From a bacterium (GTDB lineage Bacteria > Bacillota_I > Bacilli_A > RFN20 > CAG-826), in the NCBI GenBank assembly GCA_963605025.1, contig CAVCSZ010000003.1, forward strand, positions 9,201-73,200: DNA of 64,000 nt, in the 5' to 3' direction. The notes beneath the pieces are model-generated. The model saw only the letters and a program-made list of their open reading frames with translations, was not told the origin of the DNA and did not search any database. Of this stretch, positions 4,567-60,783 are shown piece after piece; the stretch's first letter is position 1; each line of letters begins with the position of its first letter. The position numbers and the translations under genes were made by a program.

Positions 4567-4656
4567 TGGCGGAGTAAGAGAGGATCGAACTCTCGCCCCG
4601 GTTACCCGAGCTACTTCCTTAGCAGGGAAGCCCCTTCACCACTTGGGTATTACTCC
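4567..4656 (-). tRNA. tRNA-Ser (anticodon GCU)
   Basis: Reverse complement folds as a cloverleaf: acceptor ggagtaa/ttactcc, anticodon loop cuGCUaa, long variable arm, T-loop ttcgatc, 3' CCA. Confidence 0.9.
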
Positions 4657-4761: not shown

Positions 4762-6192
4762 TTAATAAGCTCTTCCAAAATAAATTACATATTTTGCTTT
4801 TTTACCACAAATTGGACAAGTTTCATCAAATCTAATTTGATCAAATGGCATACATCTTGATGTAGCTTGATATCTTTCTTTAATTGCAATTTCACAAGCT
4901 TCATCTCCACACCACATCATCTTAACAAATCCACCTTTATCTAAAGCTTCTTTTAATTCTTTTTCTGTATGAACTTCTCTTATATTTGCAAGTAAATTCT
5001 TTAAAGCAGCATTATACATTTCTTCATGTACTAATTTTAATAATCTATTAACTTCATTTAATATATCATTAATATTAACTACTTCTTTACTTCCATCATT
5101 TCTCTTACAAATTGTAACTACACCTTTTTCTAAATCTCTTGGACCAAGTTCAATTCTTAAAGGTACACCTTTCATTTCATATTCAGAGAATTTCCATCCT
5201 GGAGTTTTATCACTCTTATCAAATTTAACTCTAATTCCAGCATTATTTAATGTTTCATATATTTCTTCACATTTTTTATTAACGCCTTCTTTTTGCATTT
5301 GAATAGGAATAATAACTACTTGAATTGGTGCTACAAATGGAGGTAAAACAAGTCCATTATCATCTCCATGAACCATAATTAAAGATCCAATTAATCTAGT
5401 AGATGCTCCCCAACTTGTTTGATAAGGATTTTTTAATTTTCCATCTTTATCTAAAAATTGAACACCAAATGCTTTTGAAAAACCATCTCCAAAAAAATGA
5501 CTTGTTCCACTTTGTAAACATTTTCCATCATGCATTAAAGCTTCAATTGTATAAGTTTCTACAGCACCTGAAAATTTTTCTTTTTCAGTTTTCTTACCTT
5601 TTATAAAAGGGATAGCTAATAAATCTCTACCTGTTTTATCATAAATTTCTAACATTTTTAATGTTTCTTCTCTAGCTTCTTCTTCACTAGCGTGCATTGT
5701 ATGACCTTCTTGCCATAAAAATTCACTTCCTCTTAAAAATGGTCTTGTAGTTTTTTCCCATCTAACAACACTACACCATTGATTATACATCTTTGGTAAA
5801 TCACGATATGATGAAATAATATGAGCAAAATGATCTGTAAAAATACATTCACTTGTAGGTCTAATAATTAATGGATCTTGTAAAGATTGTCCTCCTCCTT
5901 GAGTAGCTACTAAACATTCAGGAGCAAAACCTTCAACATGATCTTTTTCTTTTTGAAATAATGAAGTAGGAATAACCATAGGCATATAAACATTTTCAGT
6001 ACCTACTTTTTTAAATTCATTATCCATATATTTTTGAATTTGTTCCCATATAGCGTATCCATAAGGTCTATAAATAATAAAACCTTTAGCTTCACTATAA
6101 TCCATTAATTCAGCTTTTTTACATACATCAGTGTACCATCTTGCAAAATCTTCATCTCTTGATGTAATTGCTTTATTTTTAATATCTCCCAT
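4762..6192 (-). CDS. proS: Proline--tRNA ligase (archaeal/eukaryote-like short form with C-terminal zinc ribbon)
   Basis: 476 aa with class II aminoacyl-tRNA synthetase motifs and a C-terminal CPICGKKA zinc ribbon. No INS editing domain. Confidence 0.9.
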   Translation of the reverse strand: MGDIKNKAITSRDEDFARWYTDVCKKAELMDYSEAKGFIIYRPYGYAIWEQIQKYMDNEFKKVGTENVYMPMVIPTSLFQKEKDHVEGFAPECLVATQGGGQSLQDPLIIRPTSECIFTDHFAHIISSYRDLPKMYNQWCSVVRWEKTTRPFLRGSEFLWQEGHTMHASEEEAREETLKMLEIYDKTGRDLLAIPFIKGKKTEKEKFSGAVETYTIEALMHDGKCLQSGTSHFFGDGFSKAFGVQFLDKDGKLKNPYQTSWGASTRLIGSLIMVHGDDNGLVLPPFVAPIQVVIIPIQMQKEGVNKKCEEIYETLNNAGIRVKFDKSDKTPGWKFSEYEMKGVPLRIELGPRDLEKGVVTICKRNDGSKEVVNINDILNEVNRLLKLVHEEMYNAALKNLLANIREVHTEKELKEALDKGGFVKMMWCGDEACEIAIKERYQATSRCMPFDQIRFDETCPICGKKAKYVIYFGRAY

Positions 6193-22363: not shown

Positions 22364-22452
22364 GGAGAAATACCCAAGAGGCTTAAGGGGTTGGTTTCGA
22401 AAACCAATAGATCAGAAATGGTGCGAGGGTTCAAATCCCTTTTTCTCCGCCA
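22364..22452 (+). tRNA. tRNA-Ser (anticodon CGA)
   Basis: Acceptor ggagaaa/tttctcc, anticodon stem ttggt/accaa with loop uuCGAaa, long variable arm, T-loop ttcaaat, 3' CCA. Confidence 0.85.
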
Positions 22453-54923: not shown

Positions 54924-55508
54924 TTACCATTTAAAATCAATATTTCTAGTAGCATTTATTATTTTTCCATATCCATGATATGCTTTTAAAAGCATAAAAA
55001 TAATATAACCAAATACATTAATAGATAATAATTCTCCAAGTAATACCCATCCCCACATAACAAAATATAACATTGGAGTAAAATTAAATGCATCTTGAGT
55101 ATTTAAACATGCTAAATAAATAATTAAAGGCACCATAAATGCATTTACAAAACATGGAATTAATCCAGTTAAAAATAATGATTTAACTTTCTTAGAAAAT
55201 ATAATCATTAATATACAAGAAATAAATGTTGCTAATGTACCTAAAGTAATATCATAAATTCCACTACTACTAGCAAAATTAGCAAGTAAACATCCAATAG
55301 TTAATCCTAAAGTATAATGAGGATTAAAAAATACTAATAATACTAAGAATTCACTAAATCTAAATTGCATATAAGAATAAGATAATCCTAAAAAATTACC
55401 TAAATAAGTTAAAACAGCATATAAAGCCGCAATTAAAGCATTAATGCATAATGTTTTAACATTAAAAGCATCCTTCCAAAAAGAAGACTTCTTTTCATTT
55501 TGTTCCAT
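54924..55508 (-). CDS. queT: Queuosine-precursor transporter QueT (ECF-type S component, COG4708)
   Basis: About 190-aa polytopic membrane protein that is the first gene of the tgt-queA-queH operon, as is typical for QueT. Confidence 0.55.
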   Translation of the reverse strand: MEQNEKKSSFWKDAFNVKTLCINALIAALYAVLTYLGNFLGLSYSYMQFRFSEFLVLLVFFNPHYTLGLTIGCLLANFASSSGIYDITLGTLATFISCILMIIFSKKVKSLFLTGLIPCFVNAFMVPLIIYLACLNTQDAFNFTPMLYFVMWGWVLLGELLSINVFGYIIFMLLKAYHGYGKIINATRNIDFKW

Positions 55509-55598
55509 ATTAATTTCCCCCTGTTTTATTTTAAGAGTGGTTAGTCATGGGAATAAGTTATTTAATTAACTTACAAGACACTCTAGTAGAACATATCT

Positions 55599-55627
55599 AT
55601 TATATATATCTAAAGAATAAATATCAA
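55599..55627 (-). promoter_or_regulatory. Sigma-70-like promoter (TTGATA-N17-TATAAT) for the queT-tgt-queA-queH operon
   Basis: Read from the minus strand, about 90 nt upstream of the queT ATG. Confidence 0.4.
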
Positions 55628-55635
55628 AAAGAAAA

Positions 55636-55686
55636 TAAAAAAAGTTATTAATTGAAGGTAGGATTTCAATTTAATAACTTTTTTAA
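55636..55686. terminator. Bidirectional rho-independent terminator after the amino-acid ABC operon
   Basis: 15-bp stem (agttattaattgaa / ttcaatttaataact) flanked by an A-run and a T-run. Confidence 0.6.
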
Positions 55687-55693
55687 ACAATAA

Positions 55694-56578
55694 TTAATTT
55701 ATTTCTACTCTATTTTCAACTTCTTCCATAATAGAATTAAAGTCTTCATTAGAATATGTTTTTAATATATCATTTACTTCATCTTTTAATGTAGTATTTG
55801 ATTTATTAACACCAATATAAGAATTACATTTTCCTTGATCTTCAGGATCTAAGAAACTTTGATCTAAATATAATACACTTAAATCTTTATATTTTTTTAC
55901 TAATTGTTCTGCTACTGGAACTTCTGTTAAAGAAACAAAACTTCCTCCATTACTAACATCTAAAGCACATAATCCATAACTATTTAAAGGATTATCATGT
56001 TTAATAGATTTATCAAAGAATGTAAAATATTTATCAATAAATTCATCTTGCATAGTACCTGCTTGAGCAACCATCGATTTATCTTTTAAAAATTCTAAGA
56101 AATCAGTATATTTAAAAGGATTTTCTTTAGTGCCATAACTAGTATGCATATTTTCAGTTTTAATAATACATGCATATTGAGAAGAATAATAAGGACTTGT
56201 AAAATCTACTACTTTTAATCTTTCTTCTGTTGCAATTAATCCTCCAAATGCTAAATCAATATTACCTTGTTGTAATTCAATTAATAATGAATCAAATACA
56301 ATTCTTTTAACTACTAATTCTTTATTTAACTTTTTAGCAATTTCTTTAGCAATTTGAATATCATATCCATCTGCAAATTCCATTGTACCATCAATTTTAT
56401 AAGTATATTCTGATTCTTTTGATGCATTCCAACTAAAGGGAACATAATCACAATCAGTACCTATAATTAAATATTTTGCTTGATCATTTGTGGAATTTCC
56501 ACATGAAGCACAAAGTGCTAATGTTGATGATAAAGCAATGAAACTCATCAACTTCTTTTCTTTGAAATTAAATTTCAT
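55694..56578 (-). CDS. Polar amino-acid ABC transporter substrate-binding lipoprotein (paralogue 2)
   Basis: Lipobox LALCASCGNS and family-3 binding-protein fold. It is a paralogue of the 58518-59399 product. Confidence 0.75.
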   Translation of the reverse strand: MKFNFKEKKLMSFIALSSTLALCASCGNSTNDQAKYLIIGTDCDYVPFSWNASKESEYTYKIDGTMEFADGYDIQIAKEIAKKLNKELVVKRIVFDSLLIELQQGNIDLAFGGLIATEERLKVVDFTSPYYSSQYACIIKTENMHTSYGTKENPFKYTDFLEFLKDKSMVAQAGTMQDEFIDKYFTFFDKSIKHDNPLNSYGLCALDVSNGGSFVSLTEVPVAEQLVKKYKDLSVLYLDQSFLDPEDQGKCNSYIGVNKSNTTLKDEVNDILKTYSNEDFNSIMEEVENRVEIN

Positions 56579-56707
56579 AATCTTGAATAATACTCCTTGT
56601 CTTTTATTAGACTTTAAAATATTAATACAAATTTAAAAAAATACAATAAAATTTTTATAAAAATATAAAAAAATATTCAAGCATTAAACTTGAATATTTT
56701 TTCTTAA

Positions 56708-57724
56708 TTAATCTTTATCATCTAAATGTAAGAACTCTCTAGTTCTAATTTCTTTAGGATTAGTAAATATTTCTTTAGTGTCTCCATATTCTACAATATG
56801 TCCATGTTCCATAAATAATGTTTTATTAGATACATTCTTAACAAATTTCATTTCATGAGAAACTACTATCATAGTCATTCCTGATTCTGCTAAAGCCTTC
56901 ATTACTTCTAAAACTTCATTAACCATTTCAGGATCTAATGCACTAGTAGGTTCATCAAATAAAATAATATCTGGATCCATACATAATGCTCTTGCAATAG
57001 CAACTCTTTGTTTTTGACCACCTGATAATTCATCAATTCTATAATTCATTCTATCTTGCATATTAACACTAGTTAAATGTTTAATTGCAATTTCTTTAGC
57101 TTCATTTCTAGAACGATGTAATACTTTTACTTGTGCTAAAATACAATTTTCTAATACATTATAATTATTAAATAAATTAAATGATTGGAAAACCATAACT
57201 ATTTTAGTACGCATTTTATTAATTTCTTTAGAATTAATTTTAGTATTAGGACTTTCCTTAATAGCAGCTTTATAAGCTTCATTATCAAAATAATTAATCT
57301 TTAAAGGAGCATTTTTTCTTACTTCTTTAAATTCTTTATTAGCTATTTTTAATTTAGCTTTTATTTCTTTTTTCTCTTCTTTAGAAATATTTTCTAATAA
57401 TTTATTTTTATAAATAGCAACATTATCTTCTGTTCTTACTAATTCTTCTTCATAGAATTTATAAGCTTCTTTATATTTAACATAATCTACGAAATCATCT
57501 TTACATTTATTAATAGAAAAATAAACATTATTTTCATAACTCATTATTCCTCTAGTAGGTGTTTCAAGTAAATTTAAACATCTTAAGAAAGTAGATTTTC
57601 CACTTCCAGAAGGACCAATAATTGCTATAACATCACCTTTAGAAACATCTAAAGATATATCTTTTAAAACTTTATTAGTACCAAAGAATTTAGCAAGATT
57701 CTCTACATGTAATAAATTATCCAT
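56708..57724 (-). CDS. Polar amino-acid ABC transporter ATP-binding protein with a ~95-aa lysine-rich insertion
   Basis: Walker [10 protein letters not shown], signature LSGGQKQR, Walker [12 protein letters not shown]. An insertion lies between Walker A and the Q-loop. Confidence 0.8.
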
Positions 57725-58518
57725 TATATTAAATCTCCTTTTCTAAAATATCTTCCGAATGGATTTAAAGAAATCTTCTTTCCATTTAATTTCTTTTCTA
57801 TTAATTTTAAAATACCAGTAAAAATTAAAGTAAGTGCTAAATAAATAATTGCTAAAATTAAATAACATTCCATAAATGAATAAGTTCTTCCTGCAATTAA
57901 GAATATTCTATAATAAAGTTCAGTAACTGTAATAACATTTAAAACAGAAGAATCTTTAATATTAACAATTAATTCATTTCCAATAGTAGGAATAGCATTT
58001 TTTAAAGCTTGAGGTAATACAATTAAAAGTGAAGTTTTAGAAGCACTGAAACCTAAACTTCTAGCGCCTTCTACTTGACCTTTATCAATACCATTCAATC
58101 CACTTCTTACTATTTCTCCCATATATGCACTAGTATTTAATGTAATAACAATTAAACCTGCAAATAACCATCCATTTAAAACGTAAGAAATTTCTCCACT
58201 AAATTGAATAGCACCCCAGTTAACTCCTAATGCTTGAGATCCATATTTAAATAATAATGCTTGAACCATCATAGGAGTACCTCTAATAACACTAGAATAG
58301 ATATTACATATTCCTTTTAATAAAGCTTTAAAGAAATATGCTATTTTATTATCATTAAATCTATCTAATTTAATATTTTTACCATATGCTAAAAATATTC
58401 CTAAGATTAATCCAACTATTGTACCAAATAAAGCAAGTATTAATGTTGATAAAATTCCATAAGAGATAATTGTAATATTTTGTCCAAATATCTCCCACAT
58501 TTTATCAAAATTAACCAT
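57724..58518 (-). CDS. Polar amino-acid ABC transporter permease
   Basis: HisM/GlnP-like permease with an EAA-like loop. Confidence 0.8.
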
Positions 58519-59399
58519 TAAGCATTTTCAGCTGATCTTTGAGCAGCTGCTCCCATCATTTCACCTCTTTCACTATCTGATAATTTAGCAAGTGAACTAT
58601 TTAATAATTCTTCTAATTCAGTATTACCTTTTTTAATACCAATACTAACAGTTAAACCATTTTTATCATCATCACTTAAGAAAGAATAATCACAATAAAG
58701 TGCACTTAATCCACCTAAATTACACATAGCTTCTACTACAGGTGCTTCAGCAGGCATTGCAAAACTATTACCAGATTTAACATCTTGAGCTGCTAAAGGA
58801 TAAGTAGCTAATGGAGAATTATGAATAATTGTAGAATCTATTGCACTAAAATAAGTATCAATAAAATCATCACCTACTACACTAGCTTGACAAATTAAAG
58901 AATGATTTTTAAATAATTCTAATAATTGTTCATATGTTGCAGGATTTTCTTTTGTACCATATCCTGAAGGCATATTTTCAGTTTTAATTAAGAATGCTAA
59001 ATCACTTGATAAATAAGGAACTGTAAAATCAATAGATTTTCTTCTTTCAGTAGTATCTGTCATACCTGCTAAAATCATATTAATATCATCACCTTGTAAA
59101 GAAGGAACAAGTGAATCCCAAGTCATTCTTTTAATATATACTTCTTTATTTAAATCTTTTGATAAATATTTAGCAATTTGAATATCATATCCATCTGCGT
59201 ATTCATTTGTACCATATAATGGTAAAGTATACTCACTTTCACTAGAAGCAGTCCAGTTAAAAGGTTGATAATTAGCTTCCATTCCAATTACTAAAACATC
59301 ATTACTTACTGTTAATGAATTACATGATGTTAAACTTCCTGAAATTGAAGCAACACTTACTAATGATAAAATCATTTTTCTAATACTATTTCTTTTCAT
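58518..59399 (-). CDS. Polar amino-acid (likely lysine) ABC transporter substrate-binding lipoprotein (paralogue 1)
   Basis: Lipobox LTSCNS and family-3 binding-protein fold. It is the first gene after the lysine riboswitch. Confidence 0.75.
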   Translation of the reverse strand: MKRNSIRKMILSLVSVASISGSLTSCNSLTVSNDVLVIGMEANYQPFNWTASSESEYTLPLYGTNEYADGYDIQIAKYLSKDLNKEVYIKRMTWDSLVPSLQGDDINMILAGMTDTTERRKSIDFTVPYLSSDLAFLIKTENMPSGYGTKENPATYEQLLELFKNHSLICQASVVGDDFIDTYFSAIDSTIIHNSPLATYPLAAQDVKSGNSFAMPAEAPVVEAMCNLGGLSALYCDYSFLSDDDKNGLTVSIGIKKGNTELEELLNSSLAKLSDSERGEMMGAAAQRSAENA

Positions 59400-59426: not shown

Positions 59427-59645
59427 AAGAAAAAGGTTGCATCAATCGATGCAACCTAATTAAATATTTAATTAAATAGTAACATCGATAGCTCCTCTAC
59501 AATTGTAGGAGTCTATAAGATGTTATCTTATAGCCCAATCATTATTTATACCTAAATAATGTTTCGGCGATTATTCCTTTCCTTAATTTCACTTGATGTC
59601 TCATCCATTAAGTACTAATTTTAATCGCGCCTCTATCAATTACGT
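59427..59645 (-). promoter_or_regulatory. Lysine riboswitch (L-box) with an intrinsic terminator expression platform
   Basis: The minus-strand leader contains GAUAGAGGCGCG, GUGAAAUUAAGGAAAGGAAUAAUCGCCGAAAC and UGUAGAGGAGCUAUCG, matching the conserved L-box blocks (B. subtilis lysC: GAUAGAGGUGCG, GGCUGAAAGGGGAGCGUCGCCGAAG, UGGAGGGCUAUCUCG). The terminator is ggttgcatc/gatgcaacc plus UUUUUCUU (59427-59456), with an alternative antiterminator pairing through the AUCGAUG element. Confidence 0.85.
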
Positions 59646-59649
59646 AATA

Positions 59650-59677
59650 AGTATATACTAAAATTAAAATAAATCAA
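59650..59677 (-). promoter_or_regulatory. Promoter (TTGATT-N16-TATACT) driving the L-box leader
   Basis: Read from the minus strand; the riboswitch begins about 8 nt downstream. Confidence 0.4.
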
Positions 59678-60360: not shown

Positions 60361-60395
60361 AAATAAAGGAGAATCGTTAGATTCTCCTTTTAATT
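60360..60395. terminator. Bidirectional terminator between hpt and the HesB-like gene
   Basis: Stem aaggagaatc / gattctcctt flanked by an A-run and a T-run. Confidence 0.55.
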
Positions 60396-60402
60396 TAATT
60401 AA

Positions 60403-60783
60403 TTATTTATCTTCATGATGGCAAGAACATTCATCATCGTGGCAGCAACATTCATGTTCTTCATTTTCTTCATGATGACAGCATTCATGTTCACCTTCAT
60501 TATGATCATGATGACAACAATGATGTTCACTACTTCTTAAAATAAGTCCTTCTTCATCTGCATCTAAAATTAATTTATCAATAGCTTTTAATGATTCTTC
60601 ACTTGCGTCTACTAAAACACCATTAACTTCAAACGGATCACTAGCGTCTTTTTTTGATATTAAATCTAATGATGGATGGAAATGATCTCCATGTTTAATC
60701 ATTTCTACTTTTAATACTTCTAAATTATTTTCTTTTAATGCATTTTCTACTATTACTTTAGCGTTATCTGTTATTTTAAACAT
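60403..60783 (-). CDS. HesB/IscA-like domain protein lacking the canonical Cys ligands but carrying a His/Cys-rich C-terminal tail
   Basis: The N-terminal ~85 aa follow the IscA/HesB fold pattern (MFKITDNAKVIVENAL...EVNGVLVDASEESLKAIDKLILDADEEG). The C-terminus is EHHCCHHDHNEGEHECCHHEENEEHECCCHDDECSCHHEDK. It lies 12 nt downstream of galK with its own AAGGAG RBS. Confidence 0.45.
   Translation of the reverse strand: MFKITDNAKVIVENALKENNLEVLKVEMIKHGDHFHPSLDLISKKDASDPFEVNGVLVDASEESLKAIDKLILDADEEGLILRSSEHHCCHHDHNEGEHECCHHEENEEHECCCHDDECSCHHEDK

Follow-up and report, generated by a model that had tools for sequence, protein, structure and literature searches.

Organization of the locus

The window (the whole stretch of DNA that was analysed, 64 kb in length) carries on its minus strand a leader with a lysine riboswitch (L-box), followed by genes for a polar amino-acid ABC importer. 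The first regulated gene (58518..59399, -) encodes SBP1, a lipoprotein-type substrate-binding protein of 293 aa (PF00497, SBP_bac_3, 3.3e-22), and has the Shine-Dalgarno sequence AGGGGGA at 59417-59411 (-). It is followed by a gene for a permease of 264 aa (57724..58518, -; PF00528, BPD_transp_1, 2.7e-20), whose start overlaps the SBP1 stop, and by a gene for an ATPase of 338 aa (56708..57724, -; PF00005), which is the last gene of the conserved regulated unit. After a gap of 129 nt comes SBP2 (55694..56578, -), a second, diverged binding-protein paralogue of the SBP_bac_3 type with 294 aa, which is 43% identical to SBP1 (E 2e-82, far beyond chance). An earlier reading, made from the sequence alone, had named the same four genes in this order (binding protein, permease, ATPase, second binding protein), and the domain matches agree with it. 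The next unit downstream of SBP2 is queT-tgt-queA, with queT at 55508-54924 (-).

A scan with SBP1, taking one genome per species, gave 16 related loci (designated below by L numbers), all from uncultured genomes labelled Bacilli, Acholeplasmatales, Mollicutes or Anaeroplasmataceae, whose binding proteins range from 89% down to 31% identity to SBP1. Each of the 16 loci has a match to the Rfam lysine riboswitch model RF00168 (50-97 bits) that ends 60-170 nt ahead of the binding-protein gene, and the order binding protein, permease and ATPase after the L-box is the same in all of them. The conserved regulated unit is three genes: SBP1, permease and ATPase.

Among solved structures, the ATPase matches 4YMS best (E 1.3e-69), in an alignment that leaves out query residues 62-161. 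Relative to 4YMS, these residues (57541-57242, -) form a Lys/Glu-rich insertion of about 100 residues between Walker A and the Q-loop. Judging from tblastn matches about 330 residues long, the insertion seems to be kept in 15 of the 16 loci, i.e., all except the distant L016. An NCBIfam model for a mycoplasma-type cobalt/ECF ATPase spans the insertion region in one stretch, and this match hints that such ATPase inserts recur in Mollicutes-like lineages.

Identification of the lysine riboswitch

The sequence-only reading had proposed an L-box on the basis of three sequence blocks, GAUAGAGGCGCG, GGAAAGGAAUAAUCGCCGAAAC and GUAGAGGAGCUAUCG, all of which are indeed found on the minus strand within 59677-59427. 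The Rfam covariance-model scan that it suggested gave a significant match to RF00168 (Lysine) at 59643..59481 (-), with 82.6 bits against a gathering score of 30 bits and an E value of 4.5e-20. The match spans model positions 1-182 of 182, and it is the sole riboswitch match of the Rfam scan in the 64 kb window. According to the RF00168 match and the consensus fold, the aptamer with helices P1-P5 occupies 59481..59643 (-), and its P1 is formed by UGAUAG (59638-59633) paired with CUAUCG (59491-59486). The conserved AGUA...GAAAGG blocks are present. This L-box is very AT-rich (33% G+C), and its P5 is short, with 4-5 pairs and a tetraloop.

Sixteen orthologous aptamers (that of the window and those of 15 loci with a complete aptamer) were aligned and folded independently of Rfam. 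RNAalifold recovered P1, a three-segment P2, P3, P4 and P5 around a five-way junction, with compensatory changes in 32 of the 45 aptamer pairs. Standard pairs occupy 94.7% of cells, compared with 72.3% in column shuffles (none of 500 shuffles was as high), and when the pairing partners are slid by 1-3 columns, the paired cells drop to 34-46%. The contact between loops L2 and L3, a defining tertiary feature of the lysine riboswitch class (PMC3082890), can be assigned for just two pairs: one (columns 46:97) is A-U in nine and G-C in seven of the 16 sequences with zero mismatches, and its neighbour (columns 47:96) is C-G in all 16. The RF00168 score and the covarying five-helix fold together exclude both a leader without an RF00168 match and one without the five-helix junction. 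Judged by these features, the element at 59643-59481 is a genuine lysine riboswitch, from which we infer lysine binding itself.

Expression platform and switch logic

A consensus scan placed a putative promoter at 59650..59677 (-), consisting of TTGATT (59677-59672), a 16-nt spacer and TATACT (59655-59650), with 9/12 matches to the consensus; sites of this kind abound in such AT-rich DNA (77 found, 95 expected from shuffles). This site would place the transcript start near 59643, in agreement with the first position of the RF00168 match, and would yield a leader of about 217 nt, close to the length of about 220 nt that had been claimed. The leader contains the hairpin GGUUGCAUC-GAUU-GAUGCAACC followed by UUUUUCUU on the minus strand. 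A terminator scan identified here a predicted intrinsic terminator (59427..59457, -) of 10 pairs, in which the stem AGGUUGCAUC / GAUGCAACCU with the loop GAUU (59457-59434) precedes the U-run UUUUCUU. The energy of the complete hairpin is -15.0 kcal/mol, and that of the core stem is -13.4 kcal/mol (z -5.5).

The competing structure (59445..59489, -) pairs AUCGAUGU (59489-59482) with GCAUCGAU (59452-59445) around a small AU hairpin. This predicted antiterminator has 59489-59486 in common with the 3' strand of P1, and its GCAUCGAU segment (59452-59445) consists of the 5' arm and loop of the terminator. When only the RNA preceding the terminator 3' arm is considered, it folds as the antiterminator (-13.6 kcal/mol). 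An alternative pairing of the palindromic AUCGAU had been suggested from the sequence alone, and the fold bears it out, AUCGAU(G) overlapping the P1 3' strand and pairing with CAUCGAU of the terminator 5' arm. Since lysine-stabilised P1 would cost the antiterminator four pairs, ligand binding would favour termination, i.e., OFF logic.

The terminator is kept in 15 of the 16 leaders, and an equivalent antiterminator helix (-13.1 to -21.2 kcal/mol) was found in all 14 other loci with a detected terminator. The arrangement is thus reproduced in 15 of 16 leaders, in two unrelated sequence designs. Platform type A (the window and nine loci) sets CUAUCGAUG against GAUUGCAUCGA (AUCGAUG/CAUCGA) and has the terminator GAUUGCAUCGAGCGAUGCAAUC; platform type B (six loci) sets GAGGCGCUUAA against UUAAGCGUCUAC (GGCGCUUAA/UUAAGCGUC) and has the terminator GCGUCUAC...GUGGACGC followed by a U-run. 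The orthologous L-boxes of L001-L016, which lie 60-170 nt upstream of position 6001, exemplify turnover of the platform under an aptamer that stays conserved. Because the sequences differ and yet the OFF logic is kept, these platforms provide good comparative evidence for platform function. The identity and structure of the aptamer, its conserved linkage to the importer genes and the mutually exclusive terminator and antiterminator helices are shown in silico; the functions of the promoter and terminator are predicted. The design of an OFF transcription attenuator, as originally proposed, is supported by these P1-coupled helices in 15 of 16 leaders.

In the proposed mechanism, transcription would start near 59643. 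At low lysine, the antiterminator (59489-59482 with 59452-59445) would form from the 3' half of P1 and the terminator 5' arm, and RNA polymerase would continue into the importer genes. With abundant lysine, the ligand would occupy the five-way junction and lock P1, leaving the terminator 5' arm free to build the hairpin at 59457-59434, and transcription would end at the U-run.

Transcriptional context and origin of SBP2

A terminator-like hairpin (56656..56703, -) lies directly after the ATPase stop. Its core, AUAUUCAAG / CUUGAAUAU, is flanked by an A-run and a U-run (56703-56667) and followed by a U-rich tail. The hairpin has 16 AT-rich pairs and an energy of -15.9 kcal/mol (z -4.3), the core contributing -9.1 kcal/mol (z -8.1); with such a composition and core energy, some read-through into SBP2 is plausible. 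A hairpin of other sequence is found at the same post-ATPase spot in L001 (z -5.2), and in loci without SBP2 (L007, L009, L011 and L013) the three-gene unit likewise ends in a hairpin and a U-tract. Downstream of the hairpin is a putative SBP2 promoter (56619..56646, -) with TTGTAT (56646-56641), a 16-nt spacer and TAATAT (56624-56619), followed by the Shine-Dalgarno sequence AAGGAG (56598-56593, -), which is common to the window and L001. The hexamers and spacing of this TTGTA(T/A)-16-TAATAT footprint recur in L001/L017/L018, three loci of a single species, and the spacer sequence has diverged from that of the window. As promoter-like hexamers are common in AT-rich DNA, it is only this conservation between two closely related species that argues for an SBP2 promoter. 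A further terminator-like hairpin (55638..55684, -; -13.8 kcal/mol, z -5.6), followed by a U-run, lies after SBP2.

The presence of another RNA element before SBP2 was also considered. A sensitive Rfam scan (E <= 10) of 55450-56760 detected none: its sole match is a chance SAM-II hit within the SBP2 coding region (20.8 bits, gathering score 44), and a second riboswitch before SBP2 was therefore rejected. Moreover, the leader of about 35 nt after the promoter-like site would be too short for an aptamer.

Among the sampled loci, SBP2 occurs only in the window species and the L001 species and is absent from 14 of the 16 genome loci; a large protein collection contains just a single further cluster of it at 90% identity. 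Its identity to the SBP1 orthologues is 37-45% throughout, and it branches outside all of them in 200 of 200 bootstraps, which rules out a recent tandem duplication of SBP1. The post-ATPase hairpin, the conserved -35/-10 footprint, the absence from 14 of 16 loci and the terminator of its own together indicate that SBP2 is probably a separate transcription unit. The sequence-only reading had placed both binding proteins under one riboswitch and regarded this as unusual. Neither part holds up well: the hairpin with its U-tract and the promoter-like footprint separate SBP2 from the riboswitch-controlled genes, and two binding proteins per translocator are classical, as HisJ and ArgT (LAO) share the HisQMP translocator in Salmonella and E. 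coli. Lysine would most likely have no influence on SBP2 expression, and the protein may dock onto the permease that serves SBP1.

A third lineage (L107:588-3319, and also L108) has the order permease, ATPase, small hairpin with U-tract, binding protein, terminator and queT. The L107 contig ends inside the permease gene, so that a first binding-protein gene and an L-box upstream, or a permuted gene order, are both possible. The L107 binding protein was ruled out as an SBP2 orthologue, being closer to SBP1 (59% identity) than to SBP2 (41%) and grouping with SBP2 in only 1 of 200 bootstraps.

Substrate of the importer

Both binding proteins score highest in NCBIfam with TIGR01096, the Lys/Arg/Orn subfamily, at 73-78 bits (SBP1 78) against a cut-off of 256; no NCBIfam equivalog cut-off is reached by either protein, and all scores are far below. 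The nearest solved relatives of SBP1 are cationic amino-acid binders (AncCDT-1, AncQR, 4YMX and 3TQL), which are distant and align mostly in the N-lobe. The best solved match of the ATPase, 4YMS, likewise belongs to a cationic amino-acid system. Ligand specificity could not be read from sequence, which marks SBP1 and SBP2 as generic binders of polar or cationic amino acids. The residues of the general amino-acid-binding signature, Y44, P46, F47, T116 and R119 (SBP1 numbering), are retained in both paralogues. At 13 positions where the 16 SBP1 sequences show no variation, SBP2 has another residue, and the changes include GMEANYQPF to GTDCDYVPF and AGMT to GGLI, near the canonical ligand site. 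These changes are compatible with a different ligand and prove nothing.

Lysine uptake had been assigned to the system from its leader. The linkage to an L-box in all 16 loci supports a lysine-related role; in the proteins themselves, generic in sequence, lysine specificity is putative. With the riboswitch and its precedents as guides, the importer most likely takes up lysine, possibly together with other cationic amino acids.

Other features of the window

The leader of queT was also analyzed. RF00522 (preQ1-I) has no match in it even at E <= 10, nor in the L018 leader, and Rfam scans upstream of the window queT found none of the known preQ1 classes at any threshold. Distant queT genes have canonical preQ1-I motifs in their leaders, with 23-31 bits, below the gathering score of 39. 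The window leader (55586-55506, -) has a core resembling an H-type pseudoknot, AGAGUG-UCU-[hairpin]-CCCAUGACUAAC-CACUCU-UAAAAUAAAACA-GGGGG, in which GGGGG is the Shine-Dalgarno sequence (SD). The core ends with CUAAC-CACUCU-UAAAAUAAAACA-GGGGG, i.e., with 'AC' before the P1 3' strand and an A-rich tail running into the SD; 'AC' at this place is the rule for preQ1 class I type II (2024 review, PMC11625349).

A common core is present in eight queT leaders, namely that of the window, L001:9790-9878 and, immediately before position 701, L099-L103 and L105; the QueT proteins of the other loci share 50-90% identity with that of the window. The core reads (A/C)GAGUG-UCU-[optional hairpin]-CCCAUGACUAAC-CACUC(U/G)-UAAAA..AACA-GGGGG, with the start codon 6-15 nt further on. 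P1 shows one compensatory change (A-U to C-G in L105), and the embedded hairpin, which is absent in L105, varies in sequence with its pairing kept, i.e., it covaries. A CCC...GGGGG pairing would bury the queT Shine-Dalgarno sequence. The leader is probably an expanded-loop, SD-sequestering preQ1-I variant that is overlooked by RF00522.

Some additional features were noted. Between hpt and galK lies an ORF of 126 aa (60403-60783, -) whose tail is very rich in Cys, His and Glu (…HHCCHHDHNEGEHECCHHEENEEHECCCHDDECSCHHEDK), and the protein may therefore bind metal. Between this ORF and hpt, at 60365-60390, lies a terminator-like hairpin that is perfect and bidirectional. Two class II tRNA genes, whose variable arms are long, are located at 4570-4656 (-) and 22364-22449 (+); their anticodon loops, read by eye from Rfam alignments, suggest tRNA-Ser (GCU and CGA).

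Discussion

The locus belongs to an uncultured, AT-rich bacterium of the Bacilli/Acholeplasmatales type. Taken together, we estimate a probability of about 85% that a standard lysine riboswitch switches off transcription of a polar amino-acid ABC importer with three genes, SBP2 being most likely separate. It is highly improbable that the element is instead an ON switch or controls translation rather than transcription. Lysine riboswitches with ON logic do exist (PMC2258182), but in this leader the terminator 5' arm competes with the P1 3' strand, so that a ligand-stabilised P1 favours the terminator; the SBP1 Shine-Dalgarno sequence lies downstream of the terminator, outside the switching helices; and repression by the imported substrate is what one expects of an uptake gene. 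Another possibility, which we regard as rather unlikely, is that the riboswitch senses lysine and the importer is broadly cationic (Lys/Arg/Orn/His) or serves mainly another substrate, with SBP1 and SBP2 bringing different substrates in the manner of HisJ and ArgT with HisQMP. The sub-cut-off scores led by a Lys/Arg/Orn subfamily, the arginine- or cationic amino-acid-binding nature of the nearest solved structures, and the altered GMEANYQPF and AGMT motifs among the 13 changed positions of SBP2 are all consistent with it. However, the L-box linkage is strict down to 31% identity, which argues that lysine is at least a principal substrate, a transporter under riboswitch control normally carries the ligand that the riboswitch senses, and lysXY acts genetically as a lysine importer in S. 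pneumoniae.

As for the extent of the regulated unit, all four genes including SBP2 might form one L-box operon, the post-ATPase hairpin being a weak attenuator or an mRNA-stabilising element. The four genes share a strand, no more than 129 nt lie between the ATPase gene and SBP2, the hairpin core is weak, SBP2 adjoins the only nearby permease and ATPase genes, and the L107 lineage also has a binding-protein gene after the ATPase (63-nt gap). This arrangement has, in our view, only a modest chance of being right: both SBP2-bearing species retain the hairpin and U-tract in different sequences, loci lacking SBP2 close the unit at the same place with terminator-like hairpins, the -35/-10-like hexamers are fixed in spacing while the spacer diverges, and SBP2 is missing from most of these L-box operons. 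If SBP2 is a separate unit, as we prefer, it could be an independently transcribed 'orphan' that brings a different substrate to the same permease and ATPase, whose synthesis is lysine-gated. This proposal is speculative, and we consider it doubtful. If it is true, lysine abundance would also shut off the uptake of a second amino acid, which would represent riboswitch-mediated cross-regulation between nutrients in a reduced-genome gut bacterium.

Several known systems resemble the locus in part. Like the leader of Bacillus subtilis lysC, an example of RF00168, the element has a full-length model match and the five-way junction P1-P5; unlike that leader, it controls an ABC importer, is AT-rich and has a short P5. 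It shares with the lysine riboswitch class the junction blocks AGAGGCGC, GAAAGG, GCCGAA, UGGG, ACUCC and AGAGGNGCU, as well as the L2-L3 contact, a terminator/antiterminator platform and OFF logic (PMC3082890, PMC2258182). Transporters regulated by L-boxes include lysX-lysY (COG0834, ABC-type amino-acid transporter), first proposed in 2003 (Rodionov et al., as summarised in PMC5584792), and L-box lysX-lysY genes are scattered in Firmicutes, Actinobacteria and Fusobacteria, with onion yellows phytoplasma representing Tenericutes (2017 survey, PMC5584792). In S. pneumoniae, lysXY shows strong negative genetic interactions with lysine biosynthesis genes (2024 preprint, bioRxiv 10.1101/2024.09.24.614635). 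Compared by description, LysXY (S. pneumoniae spd_0411-0412) is similar in that an L-box lies directly upstream of an ABC importer with an SBP_bac_3-type component. In contrast to LysXY, the binding protein, permease and ATPase are encoded here by three separate genes, the ATPase has the insertion of about 100 residues, and a second, independently placed binding-protein paralogue follows.

The three-component architecture is that of Caldanaerobacter subterraneus Art(QN)2 / ArtI (PDB 4YMS-4YMW, 4YMX), which provides the best solved match of the ATPase; the Art(QN)2 ATPase lacks the 100-residue insertion. ArtI (4YMX) is among the best solved SBP1 matches (E 6e-15), a distant relationship in which only the N-terminal lobe aligns well. 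The HisJ/ArgT-HisQMP system also has two paralogous SBP_bac_3 proteins beside a single permease/ATPase set, the second with its own promoter (here predicted), but that system is protein-regulated without a riboswitch, and sharing of the translocator by SBP1 and SBP2 is a prediction.

The locus is therefore another L-box ABC importer, in a lineage sampled only by metagenomics, and it involves no new principle; any Rfam-based annotation pipeline would flag this L-box. The separate binding-protein and permease genes, the ATPase insertion and the adjacent extra binding protein are minor specifics of the locus. It also offers a caution for annotation: counting every same-strand downstream gene as riboswitch-regulated over-calls the regulon, as here an internal terminator and promoter probably exclude SBP2. 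What was a generic "polar amino-acid ABC transporter" gains a confident label as lysine-repressed and probably lysine-importing. Members of this importer family are found widely among uncultured gut Bacilli/Acholeplasmatales with reduced genomes, bacteria that probably rely on amino-acid import.
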